64,000 nt of DNA from Jiulongibacter sp. (GCA_965249455.1 OZ252236.1:102161-166160); one strand, 5' to 3'; numbered from the stretch's first letter, positions 911 to 58,991 are shown. Program-made: numbers and translations. Notes: generated from the letters alone by a model not told the origin.

Positions 911-955
911 ATCAGTACTTTATTACCTAAACTATACCTTACAAACCCTATTAAT

Positions 956-1741: not shown

Positions 1742-1746
1742 CAGCT

Positions 1747-2637: not shown

Positions 2638-2648
2638 AACAAACTAAA

Positions 2649-3458
2649 ATGAGCTATACACAAACATATTTAAAAAAATGTGCAGAATTGATAGAAACGG
2701 TTTCTGCCCAGGAAAGTACGATAAAAGAGGTAGCCACACTATTTGCGAAGACCATCTTAAATAAAAGAATGGTACACGTTTTTGGCAGTGGACACAGCCG
2801 AATCATGGTTGAAGAAATGTGGCCGAGGTATGGCTCTTTCCCGGGCTTTAACCCAATTGTGGAGCTGTCTCTCACTTTTCATAATCTGGTAGTAGGTGCA
2901 AACGGACAAAGGCAAGCCATGTTTCTGGAAAATGTACCGGGACTCGCCGCTCAAATACAAAGGAACTTTGACCTTTCAGAATTAGACTCGGCCCTGATTA
3001 TCTCCTCTTCCGGTTGCAACATTGCTCCCATAGAAATGGCTGAGCTATTTCAAAAGAAAGGGATTAAAACCGTAGGGCTGATCTCAAAAAAACACTCTGA
3101 GGTTAGTGTCAGTAAAAAGTCAGACGGGAAAAAACTTCAGGATTTTTGCGATATCATTTTAGACTCAGGTGCTCCGGTAGGTGATGCCATGGTAAAAATT
3201 GAAGGCTTAGAAACCCCTGTATCTCCGGGTTCTACCATTGGCTCATGTATGATCATTAACAGCATAAAAGCCGAGCTCGCCGCACTACTGACAGAAGCCG
3301 GGCATCCACCTAAAGTACTCACAGCCGGGGTGGTGATAGGTACAGAAAAAGCTACAGAGTTATTCCAGTCAGCCTATGATGAGCATGCTCACAGGCTGGC
3401 TGGCCTTTATGGAAAAGTAGGAATTGAAAGTTATGTTTCACAAGAAATTATAGAATAG
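2649..3458 (+). CDS. SIS (sugar isomerase) domain protein, UPF0309-like
   Basis: It shows the VHVFGSGHS motif and a SIS-type phosphosugar-binding fold. It is tightly packed within the operon. Confidence 0.6.
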   Translation: MSYTQTYLKKCAELIETVSAQESTIKEVATLFAKTILNKRMVHVFGSGHSRIMVEEMWPRYGSFPGFNPIVELSLTFHNLVVGANGQRQAMFLENVPGLAAQIQRNFDLSELDSALIISSSGCNIAPIEMAELFQKKGIKTVGLISKKHSEVSVSKKSDGKKLQDFCDIILDSGAPVGDAMVKIEGLETPVSPGSTIGSCMIINSIKAELAALLTEAGHPPKVLTAGVVIGTEKATELFQSAYDEHAHRLAGLYGKVGIESYVSQEIIE

Positions 3459-3461
3459 ATT

Positions 3462-4655
3462 ATGGCTAATGTTTGCATATTAGGTGGAGGGTTTATCGGC
3501 CGGTTCTATGCAGAATCGTTAATTGGAAGAAGAAGCAAAGACTCTGTAACAGTGGTCTATTCACGAAGTGAGGACACTGTTAACAGATTCGCAAAAGACT
3601 ATAAAGTTGGAAACGTTTACACAGATATGGAGTCGGCGGTGCTTGATCCCGCGGCAGAAATAGTCATTATAGCCTTGCCAAATTATCTCCACGAAGAGGC
3701 CGTCATGCTATGTGTAAAACATAAAAAGGCCGTTCTATGTACCAAGCCTCTAGGCCGTACAGCCCAGGAAGCTCTAAGAATGATGGAAGCTTGTGAAAAA
3801 GCAGGTATTTTCTCCGGCTATCTTGAAGACCTCTGCTACACTCCCAAGTTCCTGAAGTCTTTAAAATCTGTCAAAGATGGGACCATTGGGCGAGTGCTTT
3901 GGGCAAAATCAAGAGAAACACATCCCGGTCCACACGCCGAGTGGTTTTGGGATTTAGAAGCTGCAGGAGGTGGAGCCATTGTTGACATGGGCTGTCACTG
4001 CATTGAAATCAGCAGAAATTTCATTGGAAAAGACATTAAGCCTATAGAGGTCATGTGCTGGGCAGATACACAGGTAAAACCCATTGAGGCTGAGGATCAT
4101 GCCATAGGCTTAGTCAAATATGAAAATGGGGCCATAGGGCAATTTGAAGTAAGCTGGACTTTTAGAGGTGGGATGGATTTGAGAGACGAAGTCATGGGTT
4201 CTGAAGGTACCATATGGGTCAACTCCTGGCTTAGAACTGGTTTTGAGATGTTTACCTCTGGTGAAGGTAATGGCGGATACCTTGTAGAAAAGTCTGAATC
4301 TGACAATGGCTGGCAGTTTCCTGTGGGTGACGAAGCTCATGAACTGGGCTATACCAATATGTTCATTGATATGTTCACAGCCTATGAAGAAGGCACCGCT
4401 CCTCAGGAAAGTTTTTACGACGGCTACGTAGTAAATGCCGTCATCGATGCTGCTTACAAATCAGCAAAAACCAAACAATGGGAGCCTATTGACCTGAAAG
4501 TTTGGAGAGGAAAAGAAGGGGTAACGAAACCCTCTGTTTTTCAGGAGTATGACGCTGACCATTGGTTCATAAAAAATGAAACTTTACCCAATGGAGATAA
4601 GGTCACCATTGTGAAAGACAAAGTAACTGGAAAGACGAAGAAAATTACCAATTGA
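3462..4655 (+). CDS. Gfo/Idh/MocA family oxidoreductase
   Basis: The N-terminal Rossmann motif CILGGGFIGRFYAESL and the 397-aa length fit this family. Confidence 0.8.
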   Translation: MANVCILGGGFIGRFYAESLIGRRSKDSVTVVYSRSEDTVNRFAKDYKVGNVYTDMESAVLDPAAEIVIIALPNYLHEEAVMLCVKHKKAVLCTKPLGRTAQEALRMMEACEKAGIFSGYLEDLCYTPKFLKSLKSVKDGTIGRVLWAKSRETHPGPHAEWFWDLEAAGGGAIVDMGCHCIEISRNFIGKDIKPIEVMCWADTQVKPIEAEDHAIGLVKYENGAIGQFEVSWTFRGGMDLRDEVMGSEGTIWVNSWLRTGFEMFTSGEGNGGYLVEKSESDNGWQFPVGDEAHELGYTNMFIDMFTAYEEGTAPQESFYDGYVVNAVIDAAYKSAKTKQWEPIDLKVWRGKEGVTKPSVFQEYDADHWFIKNETLPNGDKVTIVKDKVTGKTKKITN

Positions 4656-4659
4656 TATT

Positions 4660-5679
4660 ATGCATCAAATACCCATTAAAACCACAGTTGTCGGCTCCTA
4701 TCCCTTCCCGGGATGGCTGGAGTTCGGCTCCGCAAACCTAGATAAGTTTGGTCCCTCAGATATCAGCGAAATGATAGAGGACGCTGTAGTGTGTGCCATT
4801 CATGACCAAACAGAAGCCGGACTCGATGTGATCACTGATGGCGAACAAACCCGTCTGGACTTCAATCTTTCATTTTATGGCTATATCAAAGGTATACAGG
4901 CCAATCATGCGGAAACCCGTATTTTCGGCCCACCGGCTCATGATCAGCGTGGAAAGCATACCATAATTGAACCCCTAACCGCACCCAAGGGCCTGGGCGT
5001 TGTAGAGGAGTATAATCGACTGAAAAGGCTGGCCCCTAAGGGCAAAATCCTTAAGGCCTCCATACCTGGCCCCTATACCCTCTCTGGCAGAATGCTGCCT
5101 GGCGAAGTATATAAAGACCGATGGGATATTACCGAAGCTATCCTTCCCATGGTTAAAAAAGAACTTGAAGATCTGGTAGCTGCCGGGGCAGAAGAAATCT
5201 GTATAGATGAACCTTCTATGAGCTGCTACTCCTATAAAGAAGACACCAAAAGGTTCGTAGATATTTTCAATAGAACCGTGGAGAGCATTCAGGGCAAAAC
5301 CAGGATTGGAACTCATTTATGTTTTGGTAACTATAAAGGCCGTTCAGTTGGTAAAAAGACCATCGCTCCGATGCTTCCTGATTTTCTTGACATGCATGCT
5401 GATGAACTACACACCGAAATGTGCGTCTTAAATTTTGCTGAAGTACATCTATTAGAAAGGTTTGCGGAGAAAATGGACGTAACCGTAGGGGTAATTGATG
5501 TCAAAAGCTATTATATCGAGACCGTTGAAGATGTAAAAGAACGGATACAGCGATGCTTAAAATATGTTCCTAAAGATAAGTTGGCAGTAGCTCCTGATTG
5601 TGGTCTTTCTCAAACAGCCCGCTGGGCCAGCAAGAGGAAACTGAGTAATATGTGTACTGCCGCCAAAGAACTGAGATAA
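4660..5679 (+). CDS. cobalamin-independent methionine synthase (MetE C-terminal-like)/UROD-superfamily protein
   Basis: It has the TTVVGSYPFPGWLE N-terminal motif plus H/C/E/C residues (HLCFGNY, APDCGL) characteristic of the MetE-like zinc site. Confidence 0.6.
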   Translation: MHQIPIKTTVVGSYPFPGWLEFGSANLDKFGPSDISEMIEDAVVCAIHDQTEAGLDVITDGEQTRLDFNLSFYGYIKGIQANHAETRIFGPPAHDQRGKHTIIEPLTAPKGLGVVEEYNRLKRLAPKGKILKASIPGPYTLSGRMLPGEVYKDRWDITEAILPMVKKELEDLVAAGAEEICIDEPSMSCYSYKEDTKRFVDIFNRTVESIQGKTRIGTHLCFGNYKGRSVGKKTIAPMLPDFLDMHADELHTEMCVLNFAEVHLLERFAEKMDVTVGVIDVKSYYIETVEDVKERIQRCLKYVPKDKLAVAPDCGLSQTARWASKRKLSNMCTAAKELR

Positions 5680-26891: not shown

Positions 26892-28655
26892 TTAATTCTG
26901 CAACCTTTCCATTTCCACATAAAAGGGGAAAATGCGTTTCCCGGCCGAAACATAAAACGGAATAAGGTCACAAGTACCCTGAGAGAGTTTAATACTATTC
27001 ATCTCGACCCTCTCCAGATTTTCTCCCTCGAATACCTTCTTAAACACTTTTGAACCCACTTCTAAATACATTGTTCCGGAGCTTACAGGCTTGATAAATT
27101 TGAAGACTGCCTTATATTTCCCCTCATTTACGGAGACTCTCCATTTGCCATAGACCTCCTCCTGAGCCCAAATTCCCCTTTCTCCTCCGGCATCATTTCT
27201 GTTTAATATTATTGGATTTTCCTGCTCAGCTCCCACAACTATTGGTGGTTGATTCACTAAATGTACAGAGCTTATTAAACTATGATATTGTTTGTCGAAC
27301 TCTTTTTTAAGAGTTCTGGCTACCTCTTTCTGCTCTACATTAAGATTGACTTCCTCTCCGGGATCTGAGTTAATATTATATAATTCGAAGTCTGTCATTT
27401 CTGCATCAAAATCTGTCATACCAACTAACCGGTAATCACCCATTTGTAAAGCAACGTTATTATATAACTCCGGGTACCGTCTGGCCCATGAAAAGAACAA
27501 GGGTCTGTCTGCCCAGCTTACTTCTTTTCCTTCCAATAAGGGTAGTAAGCTGTGCCCATCTAATTCACGATCCTTAGGCAATTCTAAATTACATATTGCT
27601 GCCAGCGTGGGAAGTATGTCCATATGGGTGGCTGTTACATTAATGCTTTTTGCTTCGGGGTATTTCTGAGGATACCTTAGCATCATTGGCACACGAACGC
27701 CTCCTCGGTACACCATCGTCTTACGCCCCCGCATACCTCCGGTAAATCTTTTTTGTTGCGGCCCATTATCAGTCATAAAAATAAGGATCGTATTCTCAGC
27801 AATTCCCAGTTCCTCAAGTTGAGTCAAAAGCTTTCCGATATTATCATCAATATTGCTGACCATTCCATAGACCTTTCGGGCATCTTCCTTATCCCTTTCT
27901 GTCATTTCAGGCAGATTGTCTACATCTTTAAAACCTTCAGACGGATCAATATCTTTATACATATCGTAATACTTCTGAGGCAATTGTAAAGGCGTATGTG
28001 GAGCATTGAAAGCCAGATAACAAAAGAAAGGATTCGCCTTGTTTTGCTTAATAAAATTCATGGCTTCCGTTACGAATATATCTGAGCAATATCCTTCAAA
28101 GGCTTTCTGTTTTCCATTTTGCCATAATATAGGGTTGAAATAGCTACTGTCTCCTTTAAAATATGTAGTTATGTCTCCTACCTGACCCATCCCGCCGGAG
28201 AGATGTATTAAGGATTCATCAAAACCCTGATCCATAGGTCGGGAAGGATAATTATCGCCCAAATGCCATTTGCCAAAAATCCCTGTGGTGTAATTAGCCT
28301 TTTTCAGAAATTCGGCAATCGTTACTTCATCTGTATGCATGATAGCTCCGCCGTTATAGGTATCTCTAATTCCGGTCCTAAGCGACTGCCTCCCAGTCAT
28401 TAAACTGGCACGTGTAGGGGCACAAACAGGTGATACGTAAAAGCTATTGAATAGAATACTGTTTGCCGCCAATTCATCAAGTACAGGTGTTTTCACATGC
28501 CGATTTCCTGTAAATCCAAAATCACCATAACCCTGGTCATCTGTCATGATGAGGATGATATTGGGCTTGTCTGGAGTTTCAGATTTCTCTGGTTTTGAAC
28601 AGGCTAAAAAAACAGAACATACAGACAGACTAAGCAGCAGAGAGAATTTTTCCAT
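26892..28655 (-). CDS. sulfatase (formylglycine-dependent arylsulfatase family), lipoprotein
   Basis: It has the PVCAPTRASLMTGR CxPxR formylglycine motif, a signal peptide with a lipobox (FLACS), and 587 aa. Confidence 0.85.
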   Translation of the reverse strand: MEKFSLLLSLSVCSVFLACSKPEKSETPDKPNIILIMTDDQGYGDFGFTGNRHVKTPVLDELAANSILFNSFYVSPVCAPTRASLMTGRQSLRTGIRDTYNGGAIMHTDEVTIAEFLKKANYTTGIFGKWHLGDNYPSRPMDQGFDESLIHLSGGMGQVGDITTYFKGDSSYFNPILWQNGKQKAFEGYCSDIFVTEAMNFIKQNKANPFFCYLAFNAPHTPLQLPQKYYDMYKDIDPSEGFKDVDNLPEMTERDKEDARKVYGMVSNIDDNIGKLLTQLEELGIAENTILIFMTDNGPQQKRFTGGMRGRKTMVYRGGVRVPMMLRYPQKYPEAKSINVTATHMDILPTLAAICNLELPKDRELDGHSLLPLLEGKEVSWADRPLFFSWARRYPELYNNVALQMGDYRLVGMTDFDAEMTDFELYNINSDPGEEVNLNVEQKEVARTLKKEFDKQYHSLISSVHLVNQPPIVVGAEQENPIILNRNDAGGERGIWAQEEVYGKWRVSVNEGKYKAVFKFIKPVSSGTMYLEVGSKVFKKVFEGENLERVEMNSIKLSQGTCDLIPFYVSAGKRIFPFYVEMERLQN

Positions 28656-28808: not shown

Positions 28809-30317
28809 TTAATCTTCTCTTGGTTCTTTTCGTCTTGCATCTGCCATTCGAACTATCCTCGGGTGAAAAGAAGCAATTGGTTTGACTAATTCAGTTTGTG
28901 CATCAATAACTTCATGAATATTCTTGTACACCATTGGAGCTTCATCCAGATCGCTTCCAATCAATTCAATTCCCTGATCTCTCAGGATTTTTCTGACCTC
29001 AGATTCATCAACATTTTTAAATGCAGCTGTTCTACTCATTACCCGGCCCGCACCGTGTGAAGCCGAATTGATGGAAGCCTCATTTCCTAGTCCTTTCACA
29101 AGAAAACCCGGCGTTGCCATTGATCCTGGAATTATCCCCAATTCATCTTTGGAGGCAGGTGTAGCACCTTTTCTGTGAACCAAAACATCTTTACCCATAT
29201 ACTTTTCCCGCCAAGCAAAATTATGGTGATTCTCCACCATAAGAATCGGTTTCAAATTCAGATCACTGGCCATTTTGTTATGGATTTCGTGGTGATTCGC
29301 TGAAGCATATTCGCCTGCTAAATTCATAGCTATCCAATATTCCTGCCCTTCCTCTTTATTAAGGTCTAGCCAAGCAAGATGTGAAGCCTCACCGGGCAAC
29401 TTAGTTACCTGCCGTGCAATTCTTGTGTAATAACTAGCAATGGTTCCACCAAAGCCACGTGACCCAGAATGCGATAGCAAAGTCAAATACTGACCCATAG
29501 GTAAACCAATGGCTTCATCAAACTCTTCTATCTCTAAAACTCCCCATTCTACGAAATGGTTACCAGTGCCTGAGGTCCCCAATTGTTTGTAGGCCTTATC
29601 CTTCAAATCATTAATTACTTTTGTGGCATTCCATTCAGCCTTGTCCATAATTGAGGCATCATACTTATGCCTTATCTCTCCGCCTATTCCGAACTGGGCA
29701 TTCTTGCCCAGAAGCGTTTTAAGCATATCAGACTCCTTTTGTAAAACACTTGAAGGCAAATCAAAAACAGACATGCACATTCTGCAAGCAATATCAACGC
29801 CTACGGCATAAGGGATGACCTTATCAGGCTCTGTGGCCAAAACACCTCCAATGGGCAAGCCGTATCCCTGATGAGCATCAGGCATAAGAGCACCACCTAT
29901 AGCTATAGGCAATTGCATGGCAACATTCATCTGGTTAAAAGCTCCTTCTTCAATATACTCACCTCCATAGACAGGGAAATCCAGTATTTCAGGTTTTAAT
30001 TCAAATTTACTGGAATCCAACTCCCTTTGAGTTTTAACCGGAAATTCAGAAATGGTTTGCTCCAGAAGAGCCTGCCCTGCTTTAGTAAGTTTTATGGATA
30101 TTCCATTGTCAGACTCTTTGACTAGCAAGCGAGCCAGCTTAGTCAGCTTATTTTTCCTTTTAGCAGCAGCTTTGGGGTGGTCAAAAAGCTTTACAAGTGC
30201 TTTGAGAATGTCTTCTTCTCCCCACCCTGCTTTGGTTAATAGCCCTTCTGTTACCCGGGTAACTCTAGGTATAATTTCGGCGGGGATTTCCGCAATCATT
30301 TTTATGCTGTTTTCCAT
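28809..30317 (-). CDS. rtcB: RtcB family RNA 3'-phosphate/5'-OH ligase with N-terminal extension of about 80 aa
   Basis: It carries the RtcB signature motifs MPDAHQGYGLPIGG, HSGSRGFG, ENHHNF and SASHGAGR, and a C-terminal ...KPIASFHPRIVRM. Confidence 0.85.
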   Translation of the reverse strand: MENSIKMIAEIPAEIIPRVTRVTEGLLTKAGWGEEDILKALVKLFDHPKAAAKRKNKLTKLARLLVKESDNGISIKLTKAGQALLEQTISEFPVKTQRELDSSKFELKPEILDFPVYGGEYIEEGAFNQMNVAMQLPIAIGGALMPDAHQGYGLPIGGVLATEPDKVIPYAVGVDIACRMCMSVFDLPSSVLQKESDMLKTLLGKNAQFGIGGEIRHKYDASIMDKAEWNATKVINDLKDKAYKQLGTSGTGNHFVEWGVLEIEEFDEAIGLPMGQYLTLLSHSGSRGFGGTIASYYTRIARQVTKLPGEASHLAWLDLNKEEGQEYWIAMNLAGEYASANHHEIHNKMASDLNLKPILMVENHHNFAWREKYMGKDVLVHRKGATPASKDELGIIPGSMATPGFLVKGLGNEASINSASHGAGRVMSRTAAFKNVDESEVRKILRDQGIELIGSDLDEAPMVYKNIHEVIDAQTELVKPIASFHPRIVRMADARRKEPRED

Positions 30318-30351
30318 TTTTTTCTATTTGATACTACAAAGCTGGCAATCG

Positions 30352-30374
30352 TCTACGCAATCTTTTTGCGTAGA
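30352..30374. promoter_or_regulatory. perfect palindrome TCTACGCAA-tcttt-TTGCGTAGA (candidate operator) in the rtcB/regulator divergent promoter
   Basis: It has 9-bp perfect inverted arms with a 5-bp spacer and lies between the rtcB start (30317, minus) and the WYL regulator start (30420, plus). A half-site, TTTACGCAAA, overlaps the regulator ATG (30411-30420). Confidence 0.65.
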
Positions 30375-30419
30375 TAGCAGAAAGTTCTAATTTGCTAAAA
30401 ATAAGTACAGTTTACGCAA

Positions 30420-31457
30420 ATGCCCGTTAACAGAAACGCCCTGATCCGCTACAAAGTAATTGACAGCTGCCTGCAAAGGAGACAACGAAAATGGACACTT
30501 GATGATTTAATTGATGCCGTTTCTGATGCCTTGTATGAGTTTGATGGCAACGATAAGGGTATAAGTAAGCGAACGATCCAGTCAGATATTCAAATGATGA
30601 GGAGTGATAAACTAGGTTATTATGCTCCCATTGTGGTTGAAGACAAGAAATATTATACCTATTCAGAACCAGGGTACAGCATCACGAATATTCCACTATC
30701 CGAAACTGATTTAGGAAAGATGAACGAAGCCGTAGAAATGCTGAAACAGTTCAAAGGCTTTACGCATTTTAATCAGCTGAATGAGGTGGTTCAAAAACTG
30801 GAAGATCATGTTTACTCGTCTCGTGTCAAATCGTTTCCTGTTATAGATTTTGAGAAAAATGATAATCTGAAAGGTCTAAATCATCTTGATATTCTGTATC
30901 AATCGGTTATTCATAAAAAGCCCGTTTCATTGACTTATCAATCATTCAAAGCCCGAAAGGCGAGTACTTTTGCCTTTAACGTCTGGTGGCTAAAGGAATT
31001 TAAGAACAGGTGGTTTGCCGTTGGCGTCAAAGATCAGAAGAAGTTTCTTCTAACACTGGCTTTGGATCGAATTGAGGATGTTAATATTTCAGAAGAAAGT
31101 TATGTAGAAAATGACAAGTTCAATCCTGAATTATACTACAAACATGTAATTGGGGTAACTGTGAGCAATCATCTAAGACCTCTTAAAGTTGGTTTGTTTG
31201 TTTCCAATCTGCATGCCCCGTATGTCATTACAAAGCCTTTACATAGCTCTCAAGAATTACTGGAAACACGGGAAGATGGTATGGTAATTCAATTGAAAGT
31301 ACAGCATAATTTTGAGCTGGAAAAAGAAATTCTTGGCTTTGGGGAAGGAGTGCAAGTTTTGTGGCCGCCAAGGCTTCAAAAGAAAATTAAAGAAAGATTG
31401 CAGAACGCCTATAAAAGCTATGACTCATCAGATATTCCCGACGAGTCACTAGCTTAA
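30420..31457 (+). CDS. WYL domain-containing transcriptional regulator (wHTH plus WYL plus C-terminal WCX-like domain; PafBC/DriD-like)
   Basis: It has an N-terminal HTH (GISKRTIQSDIQMMRSD). The WYL core is PVSLTYQSFKARKASTFAFNVWWLKEFKNRWFAVGVKDQKKFLLTLALDRIEDV. It is divergent from rtcB. Confidence 0.7.
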   Translation: MPVNRNALIRYKVIDSCLQRRQRKWTLDDLIDAVSDALYEFDGNDKGISKRTIQSDIQMMRSDKLGYYAPIVVEDKKYYTYSEPGYSITNIPLSETDLGKMNEAVEMLKQFKGFTHFNQLNEVVQKLEDHVYSSRVKSFPVIDFEKNDNLKGLNHLDILYQSVIHKKPVSLTYQSFKARKASTFAFNVWWLKEFKNRWFAVGVKDQKKFLLTLALDRIEDVNISEESYVENDKFNPELYYKHVIGVTVSNHLRPLKVGLFVSNLHAPYVITKPLHSSQELLETREDGMVIQLKVQHNFELEKEILGFGEGVQVLWPPRLQKKIKERLQNAYKSYDSSDIPDESLA

Positions 31458-32548
31458 TTTTTCATGAAGATTTGCTTCAATTGATCCAGAATTTGTCCGT
31501 TTCCTGAAACAGAAATTGTGTTGATTTTCTCTGCGATCTTCTCCACGTATTCCATCTCCTTCAGTTTCCAGAGCATCTGGTTTTCTTCCATCAGTTTAGC
31601 CGTATTCAGCAAGCTTCTGGTAGAAGCCGTTTCCTGTCTTTGCGTAATCATATTGGCCTGAGCTGTTTTTTCGGCAATCAAGACTTTGTTCATAATCGTT
31701 TTGATTTCGCCCGGCAAAATGATATCCCGAATACCGCAGGTTTTTAATTCCACCCCTAAAGTAAGGCCCTCTTTGGCCACATCCTGAAGTATGTAATCAG
31801 AGACTCTTTCTTTTTTGGCCACCAGTTCATCCAATGTCATTTCACCAATGTACTCTCTCAATGAAATCTGAAGCATCACATACAACTGCTTTTCAAACTC
31901 CTTGTTATTAAAGAGAGCTTTCTTGAGGTCAACAACCTGATAATGAGCAAAAAAGCTGATCCGAACATTAGCCTTGTCCTTGGTCAGAATTTCCTGGCCG
32001 GAAACCTCCAACTGCTGCTGACGAATATCCAGTTTGGCGACATCTATTTTTGTGGCGTTTTTCCACCAATAGTAGGTACCGCTCTCAAGCTCTTTCTCAA
32101 ATTTTCCGTCAATCAAAAGCAAGCCTCGCTCGTAAGATTCCAAGGTATACCTTCTTATCCATGGCAAAAGAGCGGTGTCCAGCAATTGCCTTTCAATATC
32201 CTCTGTAATCTCAATTTTGGAGGTGTCCACTTTAACAAATGTTTGCTCTTTGATGCCTTTCCATACACCGTATTCGCCTTTTAACAATACTTTTGAGAAT
32301 CGTTTGTTTTCGAATTGGAGGGCAATTTGATTGTCTCCAACCTCAATCAAGTGTAGCTCGCTGGCTACTTCTGGTTTCAGATGCAAAGTATCTTCAAGTA
32401 AGGGAGGATTATATACCTCATCTCTGTTAAAAACAAATACCTGTTCACCTTGAATGAACCAATAAATGCCTTCCTGAAGCACCTTTTGGAATTTCTTCCT
32501 TTTGAAAACCAAACCAATCTGGTTTTCCAATACCTGTACTCTTTTCAT
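31454..32548 (-). CDS. SPFH/band-7 (slipin-like) domain protein with an extra N-terminal half
   Basis: The C-terminal half has the stomatin/HflC-like motifs (VRISFFAHYQVVD..., GIRDIILPGEIKTIMNKVLIAEKTAQAN). The first 150 aa or so are unassigned. Confidence 0.65.
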   Translation of the reverse strand: MKRVQVLENQIGLVFKRKKFQKVLQEGIYWFIQGEQVFVFNRDEVYNPPLLEDTLHLKPEVASELHLIEVGDNQIALQFENKRFSKVLLKGEYGVWKGIKEQTFVKVDTSKIEITEDIERQLLDTALLPWIRRYTLESYERGLLLIDGKFEKELESGTYYWWKNATKIDVAKLDIRQQQLEVSGQEILTKDKANVRISFFAHYQVVDLKKALFNNKEFEKQLYVMLQISLREYIGEMTLDELVAKKERVSDYILQDVAKEGLTLGVELKTCGIRDIILPGEIKTIMNKVLIAEKTAQANMITQRQETASTRSLLNTAKLMEENQMLWKLKEMEYVEKIAEKINTISVSGNGQILDQLKQIFMKN

Positions 32549-32559
32549 TTGGGTACGTG

Positions 32560-32884
32560 TTTAAGTTAAAAAATAATAAAGCCGCTTAACCCGGGTTATC
32601 CGCAGAAAACTGCTGACGGGGTCCCCCTTAAGAACAGCTGGGGGTGGAACGTTCCAGTAGATCCTTGTGAACTCCATTTAGTATCAGATGTACTTTTTGG
32701 TGAAAACAAGTATCGACCAGAAGGTTTCACTCTTCGTCATTCGGTATCCGGGCGGCCCGGCCGAGCTCCTGTGATCACTAAGACCTGGGCAAGCCGGGTT
32801 AAACGGTGAGTTTTGCCATTTTTGGGCTGACAGCCCTTTACAGATTAACGGTCTGTTGCATTAACCAATATGCTTCAGGTAACT
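32560..32884 (-). other. GC-rich, hairpin-dense non-coding segment between the tRNA-like array and the SPFH gene (structured leader or unknown ncRNA)
   Basis: There is no ORF of 60 aa or more. Local GC is well above the flanks, with many strong hairpins (GGGGTCCCCC, GGAACGTTCC, CCGGGCGGCCCGGCCGAGCTCC) and two AACCCGG(C/G)TT motifs. Confidence 0.35.
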
Positions 32885-33160
32885 AAAACCTAGCGGGATT
32901 CGAACCCACATATTGCTGCTGCTCTAACCTAGCTGAGCTACTCCGTCAAAGACAGAGGAAGGAATCGAACCTTCGACCTGCAAGGTGATATAGAGATTAA
33001 AGTTCTGACGGCATATTCATCCCAATTAGTAGAATACCACGAGGCAATACGGAAACCTTCGTCAGGTTCAAAACAGTAATCAAAAATCGAGGTGAATATG
33101 AGGATCGAACTCATGTCTTTACCCTAGTGGGCATTGTCCTTTCCACTGGACCAAAACACC
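32885..33160 (-). ncRNA. tandem array of about three tRNA-like elements lacking canonical anticodon arms (Y-RNA/YrlA-like tRNA mimics or degenerate tRNAs)
   Basis: On the minus strand, elements 1 and 3 have canonical T-arms and D-arms with a U8-A9 junction, and element 2 has a canonical T-arm. The T-arms are ATGAG-TTCGATC-CTCAT, GAAGG-TTCGATT-CCTTC and GTGGG-TTCGAAT-CCCGC. The D-arms are GTCC-AGTGGAAA-GGAC and GCTC-AGCTAGGTTA-GAGC. Only 11-21 nt sit where a 17-nt anticodon arm plus variable loop should be. In element 1 this region is a 5-bp stem with a 4-nt loop. The acceptor-stem pairing is imperfect in all three. Confidence 0.5.
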
Positions 33161-33194
33161 TTTGTTGTCAATTGACTGTACAAAGGTTTTGCAG

Positions 33195-33215
33195 TAGTAC
33201 GCAGCCTTTTTGCGT
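33195..33215. promoter_or_regulatory. second copy of the TACGCA-N7-TGCGTA palindrome, upstream of the tRNA-like array on the minus strand
   Basis: GTACGCAGCCTTTTTGCGTAG matches CTACGCAATCTTTTTGCGTAG at 30353-30373 in 17 of 21 positions, with identical spacing. Confidence 0.6.
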
Positions 33216-33295
33216 AGGTGAAAAATTTCTTACTTTTTATTATTGTGGCAATTGGGTAGATTTTACTAATAATAGTACATAACTATTCTATGAAA

Positions 33296-52682: not shown

Positions 52683-54104
52683 TTAATCATAGCTAAAATC
52701 GTCATCATTTAATTGATGCTCATCGTCAATTTTTACGGGTAATTTAGCACCGGAATCCTTCATCCACTTTAGAAGGTCTTTTAGCAGCTTATCTCTTATT
52801 TCTTTTTCAGTTATAGACAAATCCTTTCTTTCACCAATATCCTCCGAAAGATTGTAGAGCTCCACCCCTTCTTTCTTCCTCTTCCCTTTATTTAAAACCC
52901 ATTCCTCATGATGAAGAAGGATTTTCCAATCACCTTGTCTCATCAGCGTTACGGGTCTGCTTCTGAAATCCTGATCGCGGCCTCTGATGACCGGTCTGTC
53001 AAGATAGCCTGGAAAATGCCAGAATATGCCTTCTCTTTCTACAGAAGCTTGCTCTCCAAAAAGAACAGGCTTTATGCTGACTCCATCTAAATACGCATCT
53101 GGACTGGCTCCGGCTAAATCCACGAAAGTAGGATACAAATCCACATTTATGATGGGCATAGTGTTTATCCCGGGAGTTATTTTGCCCGGCATACAGGCAA
53201 TAAACGGTTCTCTGATGCCACCCTCATAATAGCTGCCCTTATTGCCTCTCAGGGGTTCTTGTGGAGATTCATTGGTAGCTCCATTATCCGAAGTAAAAAT
53301 GATGAGCGTATTTTCTTCAAGCCCCAGTTTTCGTAAATGATTTCTTACCAAAGCCACACTGGCATCCAAGTCAAAAGTGCAAGCAGCATAAAGTGCTTGT
53401 TTATCTGATAAACCTTTGTCCTTAAAATGTTCAAAACTGGAAGGACGAGCCTCTAAACTACTGTGAATAGCGTGGTGAGAAAGAAAAGCAAAGAATGGCT
53501 TCTGTTTGTTTTCTGTGATAAAATCGCATGCCGCATTCGTTAGAGAAAATATCCCTTTGGGATCTTCCGGCTCATCTCTTTTTTTGTTCGGGTTCCCTTG
53601 TCTTGAGTCAAAATAGGTGTCAAATCCTTGTGCCAGAGGCTTTGTTTCAGAAGTTTTACCCAGATGCCATTTCCCGAACAGGCCGGTACTGTAACCTTGA
53701 CTTTTCAATGCTTCTGCCACGGTGACAAACTTTCCCTCCAGGTGATTAGTGTTGGGAACAGGAACTACCTTCATTTTCGACTTGTCGCCTCGAGTGGTTC
53801 CCCAAACGGCATACACCCCGTGAGCCGGTGAGTACTTTCCACTTACCAGACAAGCCCTGCTCGGGGCACAGTTTCCTGCACTGGCATAGGCATTAGGAAA
53901 CACCAGACCTTCTTTTGCCAAAGCATCTATATTGGGTGTCTCAAATTCAGGGTGGCCATTATAAGCCACATCCATATAACCCAAATCATCGGCAAAAATT
54001 AAGACAATGTTTGGCTTCTGTGCTCGTAGATCTAAGGTGCTTAAAGCCACAAAAAATAAAGTCAGTATAACCTGATAGATGTTATCATTCGATTTCATAG
54101 TCAA
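52683..54104 (-). CDS. sulfatase
   Basis: It has the AGNCAPSRACLVSGK CxPxR motif and a signal peptide. Confidence 0.85.
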   Translation of the reverse strand: MTMKSNDNIYQVILTLFFVALSTLDLRAQKPNIVLIFADDLGYMDVAYNGHPEFETPNIDALAKEGLVFPNAYASAGNCAPSRACLVSGKYSPAHGVYAVWGTTRGDKSKMKVVPVPNTNHLEGKFVTVAEALKSQGYSTGLFGKWHLGKTSETKPLAQGFDTYFDSRQGNPNKKRDEPEDPKGIFSLTNAACDFITENKQKPFFAFLSHHAIHSSLEARPSSFEHFKDKGLSDKQALYAACTFDLDASVALVRNHLRKLGLEENTLIIFTSDNGATNESPQEPLRGNKGSYYEGGIREPFIACMPGKITPGINTMPIINVDLYPTFVDLAGASPDAYLDGVSIKPVLFGEQASVEREGIFWHFPGYLDRPVIRGRDQDFRSRPVTLMRQGDWKILLHHEEWVLNKGKRKKEGVELYNLSEDIGERKDLSITEKEIRDKLLKDLLKWMKDSGAKLPVKIDDEHQLNDDDFSYD

Positions 54105-54131
54105 ATAGGATTGGGTTTTAATACACTTGTC

Positions 54132-56006
54132 TTAAGGAATAGCCGCTGGCTGAAGGCCTTCCAGATAAAAAAGCATATTAGCTGAGAGCGAAAACTGTTC
54201 AAATGCCTTATCACTTTTTCTTATTTCATCTATTTCTTTGACAAAGTGTACTAAGTCAGCCCTGTTTTTTTGATAAAGTAGCATTTGTACAGCCATCCAA
54301 CTTAAAATGGGGTCATTACTTTCCAATACTTTTTTCAATGCCTTATGATCGCTGGTTTGTTCACTGACAATGGAGGCCAATACTACCTGAGCAGCATCCG
54401 GGTCTTGTTCCGCTAAATTTTTAATTGTGCCTAAATAGGGTTGAATGTTTTGAGTAGGCTGACATTTTAATCCGATAGCGGCCCAAAACCTGAGTACTTG
54501 ATTCTCAGATAGCAAGGCCTTTTTTTGTTTATTAATAGAGCCTTGTGAATCTTGACCTACTAAAAAAGCCATATCCACAATCTCTTTGACAGGGTATAAT
54601 TTGTTATCTAAGCGATAGTGATACATTGGGCCGGTTTTTGATATCCTGATCATTTCTGTTTCCGGCAAAAACATGACATCCCGTTCATTGATCAAATGCT
54701 CCTTTAATTTCTGACGGTACGTACTCAAGACCGCGTTATACTCTTTTGACAAAGCCAGATTATTGGTTTGCCATCGGTCATTTTTTATATCATAAAGGAA
54801 CTCAACAGGTCTTGGCTCCAGCATTTGAGACTCTACCGAGCTAAGCTTGCCCCCGGCATAATCCTTTCTAATGGTGGAAGTAATATCGCCCCTATCCATA
54901 TAAGAGAGGAAACGAAGCTCCTGAATGTAAGGTCTGAACACCCGGGTGTAAGCAAATTGATCGTCGATGACCGTACGCGTCATATCAAAGCTTTCATCTG
55001 AGCGATCTGAAGACAAAAAGAGGTTCTGATGTTCTGCTTTAAACAGGCTCTGCCCTTGAAAGTGTTCGGGTACGGGCACCTTAGCTATATCTAAAACCGT
55101 AGGTGGCAAATCACAAAAGTCCAGAAGTTGGGTATTCACAGTCCCATTTGTGACCGAAAACTCTTTCTGATACTTTTCAGGAACGTACATGATAAATGGA
55201 ACCTGATGTCCAAGTGCCACACCATTTGTTTTTGCACGGGGCATTCCTTCTCCATGATCTGCAAAACAAAACACAATTGTATTTTCCAGAAGTCCTTCAG
55301 ATTGTAGCCTGTCAAAAAGATTTCGCATTTCCATATCAGCCAAAGAAATGGAATTGTAGATTCTGGCGGTATGTTTTCTCATCGCCGGGCTGTCCTTATA
55401 AAATTCAGGTAACAGCACTTCATCTGCTGAGGTCTTCAACTCTTTTGGCAATTTGCTCAGAACCATTTGCTCGTATTCTTCATATGAGTTCGTCATGGTT
55501 CTGGACTGATGACTACTCATGAAATTAAATACAGCAAAAAACGGCTGTCCCTCTTCTCTGTTCCACCATCCAGCTTTGTTAGAACTCTCGTGCCATGCTT
55601 CTGCAATAAAGGCTTTAGTCTCTGCTACGTTATAGTCAGTTTTTGCATTATTCGTGCAGTAGTATCCAGCTTGTTTCAGATAATATGGAAAGCCCTTCAC
55701 AAACTCCGGTATGGGATAATTACTTCTGTGATTACCTGTACCTAAAGTGTAGGTTTTCATGCCCGTTATAAGAGCCGTTCTGCTTGGGGAGCATACGCTT
55801 CCGGTGGAAAACACCTGTGTAAATCTGGACCCGACCTTTGCCAGAGAGTCCATGAATGGAGTTTTGGCCGCCGTATTTCCATAACTTCCCAAAAATTGCG
55901 GAGAAGTATCTTCATACGTAAGCCAAAGAATATTGGGACGATCCTGAGCCTTTGCCCAGGAAGCACCCAATAAAATCCAGATTACGGCCAAACCTAGTTT
56001 CTTCAT
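54132..56006 (-). CDS. sulfatase with C-terminal extension
   Basis: It has the GSVCSPSRTALITG CxPxR motif. At 624 aa it has about 150 extra C-terminal residues. Confidence 0.8.
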   Translation of the reverse strand: MKKLGLAVIWILLGASWAKAQDRPNILWLTYEDTSPQFLGSYGNTAAKTPFMDSLAKVGSRFTQVFSTGSVCSPSRTALITGMKTYTLGTGNHRSNYPIPEFVKGFPYYLKQAGYYCTNNAKTDYNVAETKAFIAEAWHESSNKAGWWNREEGQPFFAVFNFMSSHQSRTMTNSYEEYEQMVLSKLPKELKTSADEVLLPEFYKDSPAMRKHTARIYNSISLADMEMRNLFDRLQSEGLLENTIVFCFADHGEGMPRAKTNGVALGHQVPFIMYVPEKYQKEFSVTNGTVNTQLLDFCDLPPTVLDIAKVPVPEHFQGQSLFKAEHQNLFLSSDRSDESFDMTRTVIDDQFAYTRVFRPYIQELRFLSYMDRGDITSTIRKDYAGGKLSSVESQMLEPRPVEFLYDIKNDRWQTNNLALSKEYNAVLSTYRQKLKEHLINERDVMFLPETEMIRISKTGPMYHYRLDNKLYPVKEIVDMAFLVGQDSQGSINKQKKALLSENQVLRFWAAIGLKCQPTQNIQPYLGTIKNLAEQDPDAAQVVLASIVSEQTSDHKALKKVLESNDPILSWMAVQMLLYQKNRADLVHFVKEIDEIRKSDKAFEQFSLSANMLFYLEGLQPAAIP

Positions 56007-57413
56007 TTACTTTTTGATTTTGATCAACTCATAATTCGGATCATCAGTACGAGCAGTACTTAGCAATCCTTCTAACTCTTTGAGCTTATCAGGGTATACT
56101 AAAGCCAAATCATTTTCTTCGCTTATATCTTCTTTCAAATTATACAATTCAATTGGCTGTTGGTAATATTTTACAATTTTCCAGTCGCCTTGTCTTAAGG
56201 CCTGGCGTGGACCTTTAGCCTCATTAAATTCCCAATACAAATACTTATGGCTTTGCTGCTTTCTCCCCTTTAAGGCATTAACATACGATAGGCCATTTAC
56301 TTCGGGATCTGTAGGTGTTAAGCCGGCAATTTCACAGGCTGTAGGAAGAAAATCCCAAAATGCCGAGATGTGATCTGTGGTACTGCCTGGTTTAATCTGA
56401 GAAGGCCATCTGGCCGCAAATGGCACATGAATTCCGCCCTCGTAAGTATCTCTTTTTCTTCCTTTGAATTTCCAGTTGCTATCAAAGAACCCGTTATCAT
56501 ACTCATGCCCATTGTCGCTGGTAAAAATGATCAGGGTATTGTCATCAATTCCCAGCCTTTTCAGCTTTTGCATAAGTAATCCAATATCTTTATCCATACG
56601 GGCTATCATACCTGCATAAGTGGTATTGCCTTCGGGATCATTGTAATAATGACCTTTTTTCATGGGTCTTTCTTCCCAACCCAGATTCAAAAAAGGTTCT
56701 TTAGAATCTTCAGGTACAGTTAACTCATAGTGAGGAATAGTAAATGCCAGATAAAGAAAGAATGGATTCCCTTCTGCGGCTTGGTTATCTACAAATTGTA
56801 GTGCCTCAGAGGCAATTAAGTCATGCGAAAACTGACCAGTGGTTTCCTCCGGAATATTGTTCTCCAGTTTTACCTCCTCTGTGTTTCTCCAAAGACGAAG
56901 AGGATAATAATGATGGGCAGCCCCATGTCTTCGATACCCAAAGAAATGGTCAAATCCCTGCTTATTGGCTTGAGCAGAAGTGCCGGCTTCATCCATACCC
57001 CACTTTCCGAAAATGGCTGTACTGTAACCAGCTCTCTTTAACTCCTCAGCCACAGTAACGTCCTCATCCAGCAAAACCACATCTTTACCGGAAGTAGTCC
57101 AGTTTGGGTTTCCTCTCACTCTTGTGTGTCCGGTATCTTTACCTGTAAGTAAACAAGATCTGGAGGGCCCGCAAACAGGCGAGCCAGAGTAGTGATTGGT
57201 AAAAACTATGCCCTCACGGGCTATTTTATCTATGTTAGGCGTTTTGATTTTCTCTTGACCATTAAACCCTACATCGCCATAGCCCAGATCATCGGCCATG
57301 ATATAAATGATGTTTGGTTTTGTCTTTGCCGAGCCTTTGTTGACCTGTTTAAGACAAGCACTGGCCGTGACTAATAATCCTGTGGCGAGTGTAAGTAGAC
57401 TTTTATAAAACAT
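56007..57413 (-). CDS. sulfatase
   Basis: It has the GSPVCGPSRSCLLTG CxPxR motif. Its stop abuts the start of the next sulfatase (TAA then ATG). Confidence 0.85.
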   Translation of the reverse strand: MFYKSLLTLATGLLVTASACLKQVNKGSAKTKPNIIYIMADDLGYGDVGFNGQEKIKTPNIDKIAREGIVFTNHYSGSPVCGPSRSCLLTGKDTGHTRVRGNPNWTTSGKDVVLLDEDVTVAEELKRAGYSTAIFGKWGMDEAGTSAQANKQGFDHFFGYRRHGAAHHYYPLRLWRNTEEVKLENNIPEETTGQFSHDLIASEALQFVDNQAAEGNPFFLYLAFTIPHYELTVPEDSKEPFLNLGWEERPMKKGHYYNDPEGNTTYAGMIARMDKDIGLLMQKLKRLGIDDNTLIIFTSDNGHEYDNGFFDSNWKFKGRKRDTYEGGIHVPFAARWPSQIKPGSTTDHISAFWDFLPTACEIAGLTPTDPEVNGLSYVNALKGRKQQSHKYLYWEFNEAKGPRQALRQGDWKIVKYYQQPIELYNLKEDISEENDLALVYPDKLKELEGLLSTARTDDPNYELIKIKK

Positions 57414-57483
57414 AGTTTCAGTTTATGAAATGAATAACAAAGCACAGGCTCAAAGAGCCTGCACTTTCGTCCCTTAACCCAGT

Positions 57484-58980: not shown

Positions 58981-58991
58981 TTTTGATTGGA

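Follow-up and report, generated by a model that had tools for sequence, protein, structure and literature searches.

A composite tRNA-like RNA upstream of an SPFH gene in a putative Band-7/RtcB-type RNA-repair regulon of Jiulongibacter sp.

An rtcB gene that shares its locus with a WYL-domain regulator, an SPFH/Band-7 gene and tRNA-like sequence raises the question of what the tRNA-like sequence represents and which of its neighbours it serves. Such a locus was analysed at positions 28,809–33,295 of a stretch of 64,000 nt from Jiulongibacter sp. (GCA_965249455.1 OZ252236.1:102161-166160), hereafter termed the window. The protein-coding part of the locus comprises the following features:

28809–30317, minus strand: rtcB, encoding an RtcB RNA ligase of 502 aa (Pfam PF01139, E 1.7e-83, residues 131–489)
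30420–31457, plus strand: gene for a WYL + WCX transcription regulator of 345 aa (Pfam WYL E 1.6e-8, WCX E 8.4e-10)
31454–32548, minus strand: SPFH/Band-7 (slipin) gene, 364 aa (Pfam PF01145, E 1.3e-27)
31420–31449, minus strand: terminator-like hairpin of 13 pairs directly 3' of the SPFH stop codon (consensus scan, pattern match only)

The Pfam matches bear out the gene assignments of an earlier reading made by a model from the sequence alone (the sequence-only reading), namely RtcB, a WYL regulator gene divergent from rtcB, and an SPFH gene on the rtcB strand. The RtcB protein carries an extra N-terminal stretch of about 120 aa. The sequence-only reading had raised an anti-phage role as one candidate; in a comparison with defence models (PADLOC 2023), only generic WYL models were matched, by the WYL protein (E 6.8e-22), RtcB and the SPFH protein being without a match, and a sequence search for a relative of the WYL protein with a solved structure returned none. 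The claim that no Ro/Rsr gene lies nearby was confirmed, as no TROVE domain was detected by Pfam in 28 window ORFs (eight near the locus and 20 of at least 300 aa); likewise, no recurrent TROVE gene was present among 148 neighbour ORFs from 22 related loci. The neighbours at those 22 loci included RtcB (20), RlaP (11), an RNase T-type exonuclease (4) and Tpt1 (1), and the presence of such RNA-repair genes was counted in favour of a role of the locus in RNA repair. Among 80 related loci, RtcB was encoded in the same locus as the SPFH gene in 58 and was absent from 22 (flanks of up to 6 kb per side being inspected), and the placement of the WYL gene between the SPFH gene and rtcB was seen in the window only (0/80). 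Many related loci also contain 8–15 genuine tRNA genes in the same orientation, and related Bacteroidota loci unite RtcB and the SPFH gene with an AAA ATPase and tRNA arrays in a single island.

The spacer upstream of the SPFH gene spans 747 nt (32549–33295) and bears tRNA-like sequence on the minus strand. The covariance-model search that the sequence-only reading had suggested was performed with Rfam and returned a tRNA match of 36.8 bits at 33090–33160 (threshold 29), two weak tRNA matches and, at 32917–32982, a match to part of YrlA (37.2 bits, E 2.5e-6). The description of an RtcB locus with a WYL regulator and YrlA-type tRNA mimics was supported. ARAGORN called zero tRNAs anywhere in the window. 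The core of the spacer is one composite structured RNA rather than an array, and is followed by a leader:

32984–33068, minus strand: non-tRNA 5' domain consisting of hairpin P1 (33062–33039), hairpin P2 (33037–33013) and a variable linker (covariation)
32916–32983, minus strand: permuted tRNA module 1, YrlA-like (Rfam YrlA positions 23–85, covariation)
32840–32909, minus strand: permuted tRNA module 2 (covariation)
32814–32836, minus strand: 3' H-type pseudoknot, in which the loop of the hairpin GGGC-UGUCA-GCCC pairs, across an A-rich linker, with the strand UGGCA (covariation)
32549–32813, minus strand: leader from the pseudoknot to the SPFH ATG, with partly conserved motifs (conserved blocks, 62 aligned loci)

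Module 1 begins with an anticodon-stem strand and a variable loop, followed by the T arm (32974–32958), a closed 7-bp acceptor hairpin (32957–32941), the dinucleotide UA, the D arm (32938–32921) and a closing strand (32919–32916), and is without an anticodon loop. In module 2, the T arm (32909–32893) precedes a closed acceptor-like hairpin (32892–32876), the D arm (32873–32858) and a complete anticodon arm (32856–32840), whose canonical 7-nt loop CCGUUAA displays the triplet GUU in the window. The acceptor-like stems across loci measure 5–7 bp, mostly 5–6 bp, and are closed by loops of 3–8 nt, and these closed acceptor ends render charging impossible. Leu triplets in module 2 accompany Leu-type D arms across loci. 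The sequence-only reading had described three tandem tRNA mimics without an anticodon arm, co-opted as an array. The presence of tRNA-like elements was upheld, as was the missing anticodon loop in the case of module 1; however, module 2 has a complete anticodon arm and a further element at 33160–33090 has an anticodon stem capped by a 4-nt loop instead of a 7-nt anticodon loop. The units are not equivalent, and the non-tRNA 5' domain, the 3' pseudoknot and the shared operator (see below) had been overlooked.

Homologues of the RNA were identified upstream of the SPFH gene in 80/80 Bacteroidota loci from four orders, the carriers including Emticicia, Pedobacter caeni and Chryseolinea serpens, and a metagenome scan that started from the RNA located an SPFH gene directly downstream in 65 of the 66 informative matches. 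The pairing of RNA and SPFH gene is near-obligate, and the conservation in related genomes on which the earlier proposal had been staked beforehand was thereby found. In a structure alignment of 58 homologues, 93.6% of the cells representing 60 base pairs were paired, as compared to 40–46% in slid controls, and double changes occurred at 52 of the 60 pairs; the observed values were reached by 0/500 shuffles. The elements are conserved and covary far beyond chance. P1 and P2 were 95% and 92% paired, respectively, with six covarying pairs each, while helices 3–6 of module 1 were 90–100% paired (double changes at 18/20 pairs), helices 7–10 of module 2 were 92–99% paired (double changes at nearly all pairs) and the stem of the pseudoknot hairpin was 84.7% paired. 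Complementarity between the pseudoknot loop and the downstream strand averaged 4.55 nt, versus 3.23 ± 0.13 nt in 500 cross-sequence permutations, and these pairs also covary. The Rfam tRNA model scored the RNA core of relatives at 31–40 bits, and Rfam contains no dedicated family for the SPFH-associated RNA.

In the AF2 model of the SPFH protein (pLDDT 76.6), the SPFH domain is preceded by three five-stranded beta repeats and followed by a long helix. PDB sequence matches were to stomatin, and a Foldseek search with the model retrieved stomatin and HflK/C cages, as well as the major vault protein over the full length. As in the slipin family, the SPFH domain is followed by a coiled-coil helix; the membrane anchor of that family was not predicted. 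No transmembrane helix was called in the protein, whose 19-residue Kyte–Doolittle hydropathy peaks at 0.83, and the corresponding peak was below 1.6 in 20/20 homologues. The membrane SPFH scaffold that had been envisaged for this locus is consequently not supported. Like other SPFH proteins and the vault protein, the SPFH protein of the window probably assembles into a ring-shaped or cage-like structure of large size.

A palindrome search revealed a candidate operator that links the two transcription units:

30353–30373, no strand assigned: operator copy 1 within the promoter region shared by the divergent rtcB and WYL genes, sequence CTACGCA-N7-TGCGTAG (palindrome search)
33181–33217, minus strand: operator copy 2 (33217–33198) with a promoter-like TTTG (33184–33181), upstream of the RNA/SPFH unit (palindrome search)

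Within the 64 kb, exactly two copies of this palindrome exist, against a chance expectation of 0. Copy 1 is likewise followed by TTTG, 13 nt downstream on the rtcB strand, and the arrangement of palindrome and TTTG is repeated in related loci. Furthermore, the palindrome was present in 37/37 loci with a WYL gene versus 11/43 without one (Fisher p 2.7e-13), and was never found in shuffled loci. The regulator displays the WYL and WCX domains of its family together with a candidate DNA target near its own gene, and is probably the repressor of both the rtcB and the RNA/SPFH units.

We propose, with moderate confidence in the account as a whole, that the locus constitutes a small Band-7/RtcB-type regulon for RNA repair, with a WYL repressor, a tRNA-like RNA and an SPFH particle. 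The repressor would bind the palindrome where it overlaps the rtcB promoter, divergent from the WYL gene, and the RNA/SPFH promoter, and would be freed upon RNA damage by broken tRNA or other RNA fragments. The RNA, in which a 5' domain and a 3' pseudoknot flank two tRNA-shaped bodies whose acceptor ends are closed, would be the dedicated partner of the soluble SPFH protein, which itself would assemble into a large ring or cage. The resulting RNA-SPFH particle may then cooperate with RtcB in dealing with cleaved tRNAs, whether it recruits enzymes that handle tRNA or itself takes the place of tRNA.

Alternatively, it may be hypothesized that the RNA belongs to the SPFH mRNA as a leader that acts in cis and controls transcription or translation, or is trimmed by tRNA-processing enzymes to set mRNA levels, rather than a free partner. 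Conservation runs on to the SPFH start codon, and the RNA could thus act in cis: it is always located on the same strand directly upstream of the SPFH gene, most loci place 209–376 nt between core and ATG, an interval that contains conserved motifs, and no convincing terminator separates the RNA from the ATG in the window. However, module 1 follows the design of YrlA, familiar from a free RNA that is held in a particle, alternative terminator/antiterminator pairings were not observed, and the fold of the 287 nt downstream of the RNA core is unremarkable (z-score −1.47). A leader in place of a free partner therefore seems unlikely, although the two roles are not mutually exclusive.

The anticodon arm of module 2 suggests another function, that of a decoy or bait for anticodon nucleases, in which an unchargeable body with a normal loop soaks up toxins or reports an attack by being cleaved, whereupon RtcB would reseal it. 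Of the 58 sequences, 49 have a loop of 7 nt, and U33 is present in 45 of these; position 37 is a purine, yet 21 different triplets occur among the 49 sequences, and the closed acceptor ends preclude charging. A sponge role has been proposed for the array tRNAs of Anabaena, and an inhibitor role for Salmonella YrlA. Conversely, module 1 and the 5' domain are equally conserved in spite of having no anticodon loop, and the variation in triplets may follow exchange with neighbouring tRNA genes, as the Leu-type D arms with Leu triplets would indicate, such that we consider this function quite improbable. An extended form, which we regard as very doubtful, would place the RNA in an undescribed class of large non-coding RNA, whose two sealed permuted tRNA bodies, 5' domain and pseudoknot reside in a soluble, vault-like SPFH cage, the anticodon module, with its canonical loop that varies between species, serving as anticodon-nuclease bait or sensor to be resealed by RtcB. 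If this were true, the system would be a tRNA-damage surveillance particle and not a passive scaffold.

Module 1 possesses the permuted tRNA-like domain of YrlA (RF02553), in which a closed acceptor stem lies between the T and D arms, and the RNA could accordingly be an ordinary YrlA Y RNA serving an Rsr (Ro60) encoded elsewhere in the genome, given the E value of the partial match and a TROVE scan that spans the window ORFs. Nevertheless, only model positions 23–85 are matched, leaving the Ro-binding stem (positions 1–22 and 86–114) unmatched and the score of 37.2 bits far under the family threshold of 69; the regions flanking module 1 form their own hairpins and the second module in place of this stem, TROVE is absent from the 28 window ORFs and not recurrent in the 22 related loci, and the RNA tracks the SPFH gene (80/80 and 65/66), making this explanation highly improbable. 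That the elements are functionless remnants of a decayed tandem tRNA array is barely credible: real tRNA genes abound in many related loci, the element at 33160–33090 resembles a damaged tRNA gene and tandem tRNAs can imitate YrlA matches (Chen et al. 2014), but in 58 sequences pairing is preserved by compensatory changes in P1 and P2, the closed acceptor hairpins, the pseudoknot and the long-range stem, whereas the pairing expected of a normal tRNA is just 58% paired, and covariation thus refutes decay for the RNA core.

Decay is plausible for one element only, which is located upstream of the core:

33090–33160, minus strand: degenerate tRNA-like element, a cloverleaf with two acceptor-stem mismatches (Rfam tRNA, 36.8 bits)

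While it passes the score threshold of the tRNA family (RF00005), its 4-nt loop, two broken acceptor pairs and lack of an ARAGORN call argue against a usable tRNA. The closest match is an intact, syntenic tRNA-Asp(GUC) of Emticicia (locus L002), the difference being a gap in the anticodon loop, and of the 24 loci displayed only four (L001, L002, L053 and L079) have a T-arm-bearing element at the equivalent site. This element looks like a decayed copy of tRNA-Asp, which is the one instance in which the decay anticipated by the sequence-only reading as a counter-explanation was encountered.

Several known systems resemble the proposed regulon in part. The major vault protein shares with the window SPFH protein the succession of beta repeats, SPFH-like domain and long helix, and its structures were the only PDB matches among those listed with an alignment length (401–454 columns) sufficient to include the N-terminal repeats. 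The two proteins show modest similarity (E about 6e-9, TM-score 0.33–0.42, 10–12% identity), and the window protein has only three repeats and a predicted cage, unlike the vault particle. Each protein is found or encoded with a small structured RNA, the window RNA being unrelated to vault RNA. Permuted tRNA genes, reportedly described by Soma and colleagues in 2007, occur in the red alga Cyanidioschyzon merolae. In these, as in the window, the T arm and an acceptor strand lie upstream of the other acceptor strand, the D arm and the anticodon arm, and an RtcB-type ligase is at hand in both cases. The possibility that the window modules are precursors of working permuted tRNAs was considered and is not supported, given their short stems, the closing loops of 3–8 nt and the fact that no circularisation motif was seen; the acceptor-like stems are closer to a sealed mimic than to a precursor that would be opened.

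In the TrcR regulon of Anabaena, which is induced by translational stress, one repressor governs rtcB, the slipin gene alr0740, the AAA ATPase gene all0263 and the tRNA array trn, a gene content resembling that of related Bacteroidota islands (rtcB, slipin-family SPFH gene, AAA ATPase and tRNAs). However, the Anabaena repressor is a ribbon-helix-helix protein and its genes are scattered, whereas the candidate repressor of the window is a WYL protein; moreover, in the passages considered here its slipin gene is not reported to be preceded by a tRNA-like RNA, while the window has such an RNA but no intact tRNA gene. The Salmonella rsr-yrlBA-rtcBA operon likewise combines RtcB with a tRNA mimic that has a closed acceptor stem in addition to T and D arms, and is induced via RtcR, a sensor regulator of damaged RNA. 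In contrast to this operon, the window lacks Rsr and the Ro-binding stem and has an SPFH protein in the place of Ro, a predicted WYL repressor with a palindromic operator instead of the sigma-54 activator RtcR, and an RNA that adds a second module bearing an anticodon loop.

The closest precedent was set by Burroughs and Aravind 2016 (NAR), who, as summarised by Wang et al. 2018 (bioRxiv 10.1101/312249), predicted RtcB systems adjoining a Band-7 protein and a tRNA-like RNA (b7a-tRNA) and noted YrlA occasionally beside Band-7; the claim that the locus had not been described in this form is thus not supported. The b7a-tRNA is, according to Wang et al. 2018, a prediction that was never experimentally validated. 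In that summary, such systems have RtcB, Band-7 and a tRNA-like RNA and no Ro protein, in common with the window, where the Band-7/SPFH gene is part of an RtcB locus and the tRNA-like RNA lies beside it; the accessory genes of the scheme (RlaP, DinB and exonucleases) are also present in relatives of the window locus. As compared to the b7a-tRNA of this summary, the window RNA is larger, exceeding a single tRNA by combining two permuted modules with a 5' domain and a pseudoknot. On its sequence, and within the outline given by Wang et al. 2018, the window locus is a further member of the already predicted Band-7/RtcB kind, with a presumed function in RNA repair.

Pfam searches bore out the sequence-only reading with respect to the identities of RtcB, the divergent WYL regulator and the SPFH gene, and the features of the locus are as follows:

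28809-30317, minus strand: RtcB (Pfam PF01139, E 1.7e-83)
30420-31457, plus strand: WYL and WCX regulator, divergent from rtcB
31454-32548, minus strand: SPFH/Band_7 protein (Pfam)
32549-33295: spacer of 747 nt upstream of the SPFH gene

The earlier remark that no TROVE gene lies nearby also held, the domain being absent from the 28 window ORFs scanned with Pfam. The setting of the locus is an ordinary chromosome, with sulfatases, SusD, transporters and kinases as its neighbours among the scanned ORFs. Several sulfatase genes and a SusD-like gene (26892-28655 and 52683-62006), adjoining an ORF of 1004 aa, look like a polysaccharide-utilisation cluster unrelated to the RNA-repair locus. RtcB carries an N-terminal extension of approximately 120 aa without a Pfam match (residues 1-120, 29958-30317), which was aligned only by its closest (Cytophagales) homologues, other homologues beginning near residue 100. 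No PDB entry matched the WYL protein by sequence, and PADLOC fitted no defence model to RtcB or the SPFH protein and indicated no defence-system membership.

ARAGORN detected no tRNA in the whole window, and the spacer elements are therefore not ordinary tRNA genes. At curated thresholds, Rfam returned tRNA matches only and no family for the SPFH-associated RNA; the tRNA match at 33090-33160 (minus strand) reached 36.8 bits (threshold 29). A sensitive Rfam scan additionally identified a partial YrlA match at 32917-32982 (minus strand; 37.2 bits, E 2.5e-6), which spans model positions 23-85 of 114 in a family whose threshold is 69, and two weak tRNA matches (32893-32940 and 32823-32877).

The SPFH protein is a member of the large "slipin" family, its best matches (55-64% identical) being found in Cytophagales such as Emticicia. 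Scanning one genome per species yielded 80 related Bacteroidota loci from the Cytophagales, Chitinophagales, Sphingobacteriales and Flavobacteriales. RtcB was present in the same locus in 58 of the 80, nearly always on the same strand and downstream of the SPFH gene, and a WYL gene lay upstream in 37. The usual order is a divergent WYL gene, a gap of 600-1000 nt, the SPFH gene and RtcB; that of the window is atypical, as the WYL gene sits between the SPFH gene and rtcB. Queried with the window spacer, nhmmer gave a syntenic match in most loci after one pass (E down to 1e-18). After three iterations, the conservation beside the SPFH gene in related Bacteroidota, which the sequence-only reading had put forward as a check, extended to 80/80 loci, where the match in each lay 250-800 nt ahead of the SPFH gene. 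In an independent, RNA-first test, a short RNA-derived pattern was scanned against metagenome contigs: 90 of 120 matches represented this RNA, and an SPFH gene lay immediately downstream in 65 of the 66 that had at least 900 nt of downstream room. The sole exception, metagenome contig L286 (30-2554), has RtcB approximately 1.2 kb past the RNA, and no SPFH gene was detectable in the interval. Because the association holds in both surveys, the RNA and the SPFH gene constitute a near-obligate pair, with RtcB and WYL as common companions that are less tightly linked. No SPFH relatives were found in viral contigs, and a viral scan with the pattern "D arm, short linker, T arm" returned 120 loci, none with an SPFH, RtcB or WYL gene and none with the full RNA. 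In one viral contig (L123, 5130-5280; IMGVR_UViG_3300027869_000035), a unit comprising a T arm, a closed acceptor hairpin and a D arm occurs twice in tandem, which resembles a doubled YrlA; the portion of that contig retrieved encodes neither SPFH nor RtcB nor WYL.

RNAalifold analysis of a MAFFT alignment of 58 core RNA sequences (A2) produced a consensus of 56 pairs, 47 of which displayed compensatory changes; a 3' hairpin was appended to this consensus by hand before pairs were counted. The final structure comprises 60 pairs in 11 helices, with 93.6% of cells paired as against 40-46% in slid controls, and 52 of the 60 pairs have changed on both sides. The covariation score was 0.62, versus 0.09-0.13 in slid controls (partners shifted by 1-3 columns), and the observed pairing values were reached by none of 500 shuffles. 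The RNA core is approximately 260 nt long, with defined, covariation-supported helices:

33068-32984, minus strand: 5' domain with hairpins P1 and P2
32983-32916, minus strand: module 1, a permuted tRNA unit
32909-32840, minus strand: module 2, a permuted tRNA unit
32836-32814, minus strand: 3' pseudoknot, in which the hairpin loop pairs with a strand beyond an A-rich linker

Module 1 runs in the order anticodon-stem strand, variable loop, T arm, acceptor stem (7 bp, with a 3-nt closing loop), UA, D arm and closing strand; its layout is that of YrlA, a circularly permuted tRNA lacking the anticodon loop. In module 2, a T arm and a closed acceptor-like hairpin come first, and a D arm and a complete anticodon arm follow. 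For the pseudoknot, a permutation test across sequences gave a mean complement of 4.55 nt versus 3.23 +/- 0.13 (maximum 3.64), and covarying pairs were seen (e.g. CACC/GGTG, CATC/GATG, GAGG/CCTC and GGGC/GCCC).

That this RNA is a cis-acting leader of the SPFH gene is the main rival to our preferred reading, because conservation reaches the SPFH start codon. The 287 nt from pseudoknot to ATG proved unremarkable when folded (z -1.47). Conserved motifs, e.g. CTTCCG and GCTTT..TTTTAAAA, were observed in this region (32549-32813) across 62 loci, and the RNA may be longer than its core or include a leader element. We prefer to regard the RNA as a probable partner of the SPFH protein; an attractive minority reading would make its anticodon-bearing module 2 a bait or sensor. 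The tRNA-like elements had previously been described as having no anticodon arm, a description that fails for module 2, since its complete arm bears a 7-nt loop in 49 of the 58 sequences (U33 in 45/49, a purine at position 37 in 45/49), with a pyrimidine at position 32. Twenty-one different triplets occur there, that of the window being GUU. In A2 columns 284-326, the D arm type of module 2 tends to be associated with its triplet across the 58 loci, Leu triplets accompanying class II-like UG-GCG...CGC D arms in loci L026, L072 and L076 (L079 being an exception), and this tracking suggests that module 2 has repeatedly been exchanged with real tRNA genes.

Tandem tRNAs may imitate YrlA hits, as Chen et al. 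2014 have warned. The closed acceptor hairpins (helices 5 and 8) display double changes in all of their pairs, and a conventional tRNA, built from the module 1 D arm and the module 2 T arm with its own acceptor stem, was rejected because 58% of cells pair, compared to 90-92% when the same region is read as hairpins; the core RNA is no tandem-tRNA artefact. Functional permuted tRNA genes opened by processing are unlikely, given that the acceptor-like stems are short (5-7 bp) and closed (loops of 3-8 nt), so that they represent sealed mimics and not precursors.

Two copies, and no more, of the palindrome CTACGCA-N7-TGCGTAG were located in the 64 kb of the window, where none would be expected by chance:

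30353-30373: candidate operator, rtcB/WYL intergenic region
33198-33217: candidate operator, upstream of the RNA

On the rtcB/SPFH strand, a TTTG lies 13 nt downstream of each copy; we take it to be a Bacteroidota promoter-like motif. A sigma-70 promoter scan was uninformative for Bacteroidota. The palindrome was present in 37/37 loci with a WYL gene versus 11/43 without (Fisher p 2.7e-13), and shuffled loci gave no matches. Its presence at both promoters and its co-occurrence with the WYL gene argue that it is very probably the operator to which the WYL protein would bind, and the RNA/SPFH unit and rtcB very probably form one regulon. In Emticicia (L002, position 1833), a WYL-type operator with TTTG is located inside a tRNA array and is followed by eight tRNAs, the RNA, the SPFH gene and RtcB, while Flavobacterium akiainvivens (L040, 2144) has the order WYL, operator, RtcB, tRNA-Asn/Asp/Phe, RNA and SPFH gene. 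It seems that the extra tRNAs are part of the same stress regulon.

Element 1, the upstream tRNA-like stretch (33160-33090), folds as a cloverleaf in which a 4-nt loop replaces the anticodon loop and two acceptor pairs are broken. A T-arm-bearing element occupies this position in only 4 of the 24 loci displayed (L001, L002, L053 and L079). Among 257 tRNAs predicted in the loci, its best match was the tRNA-Asp(GUC) that Emticicia L002 has at the syntenic position (Rfam 62.8 bits). An anticodon-loop gap distinguishes element 1 from that tRNA, and it looks like a decayed or remodelled copy. In other lineages, intact genes for tRNA-Tyr, Gln, Pro or Trp are found upstream, within a few hundred nt of the core RNA, with a tRNA-Tyr between operator and core RNA in L023; the slot therefore holds variable tRNA genes. 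An inverted repeat (CCTTTGT...ACAAAGG, 33160-33186) covers the promoter-like TTTG and extends into the beginning of element 1. In Chitinophagaceae, an array of 8-15 genuine tRNA genes, followed by genes for an RNase H-like protein (PF04308) and an AAA ATPase, precedes the RNA and SPFH gene, after which come RlaP/DinB/unknown proteins and then RtcB. Same-strand arrays of 6-15 bona fide tRNA genes (approximately 400-5100 in locus coordinates) were observed in 17 loci (L006, L010, L015, L027, L028, L034, L044, L046, L052, L058, L060, L064, L066, L070, L071, L073 and L078), upstream of the RNase H-like gene, AAA ATPase, RNA and SPFH gene. Phe, His, Lys, Arg, Asn, Ile, Ser, Gln, Asp and Tyr tRNAs are abundant in them and those for Gly, Ala and Thr almost absent; in the four array loci scanned, the array tRNAs scored 35-69 bits with Rfam. 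A census of 148 neighbour ORFs from 22 loci recorded RtcB (20), WYL (13), RlaP (11), PhyH-type dioxygenase (PhyH; 7), AAA (5), RNase T-type exonuclease (4), RNase H-like protein (3) and the RNA 2'-phosphotransferase Tpt1 (1), with no recurrent TROVE.

The membrane SPFH scaffold proposed earlier finds no support, because a hydrophobic segment is absent: the 19-residue hydropathy maximum is only 0.83, and remains below 1.6 in 20 homologues. The AlphaFold model (pLDDT 76.6) has three beta repeats, each with five strands, ahead of the SPFH domain and a long helix. Foldseek matched it to cage-forming stomatin, HflK/C, prohibitin, erlin and flotillin structures (E 1e-14 to 1e-8) and to major vault protein entries (E about 6e-9); among the matches listed, only the alignments to the latter (401-454 columns) were long enough to include the N-terminal repeats. 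It seems reasonable to suppose that the SPFH protein may form a large soluble ring or cage.

RtcB is widespread in bacteria, and its partners and substrates are poorly known. Burroughs and Aravind reportedly described, in 2016, SPFH/Band-7 modules with "a novel tRNA-like molecule" as scaffolding cofactors. Wang et al. 2018 attribute to Burroughs and Aravind 2016 the occurrence, in certain bacteria, of RtcB beside a Band-7 protein and a predicted band-7-associated tRNA-like RNA (b7a-tRNA); they mention occasional layouts in which b7a-tRNA adjoins Rsr or YrlA adjoins Band-7, and treat b7a-tRNA as a prediction without validation. A 2026 paper places an SPFH gene within the Pseudomonas rtc locus, and the Anabaena repressor TrcR governs, under translational stress, rtcB and a tRNA array together with genes for a slipin and an AAA ATPase. 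The association of Band-7, RtcB and a tRNA-like RNA having been predicted in 2016, the claim that such a system had not been described in this form is therefore unsupported, and the locus belongs to a known, computationally predicted kind. Our literature search found no description of the composite architecture of the RNA, its operator or its absence from Rfam.

The RNA is large and well defined, and its function is predicted. On balance, we lean towards a regulon repressed by the WYL protein and devoted to RNA repair, in which the bipartite tRNA-mimic RNA would partner an SPFH protein that is soluble and probably assembles into a cage, and the two would act alongside RtcB on damaged tRNA. The idea of a Band-7-associated RNA thereby gains a concrete object in culturable Bacteroidota (Emticicia, Pedobacter, Chryseolinea, Larkinella and Flavobacterium), namely an RNA core of approximately 260 nt with an anchorless, near-obligate protein partner, a candidate WYL operator and, in relatives, links to extra tRNA genes. 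A particle composed of the RNA and the SPFH protein, if one exists, would be a bacterial equivalent of Ro/Y RNA and vault particles and would help to explain how cells withstand tRNA-cleaving toxins and translation stress.
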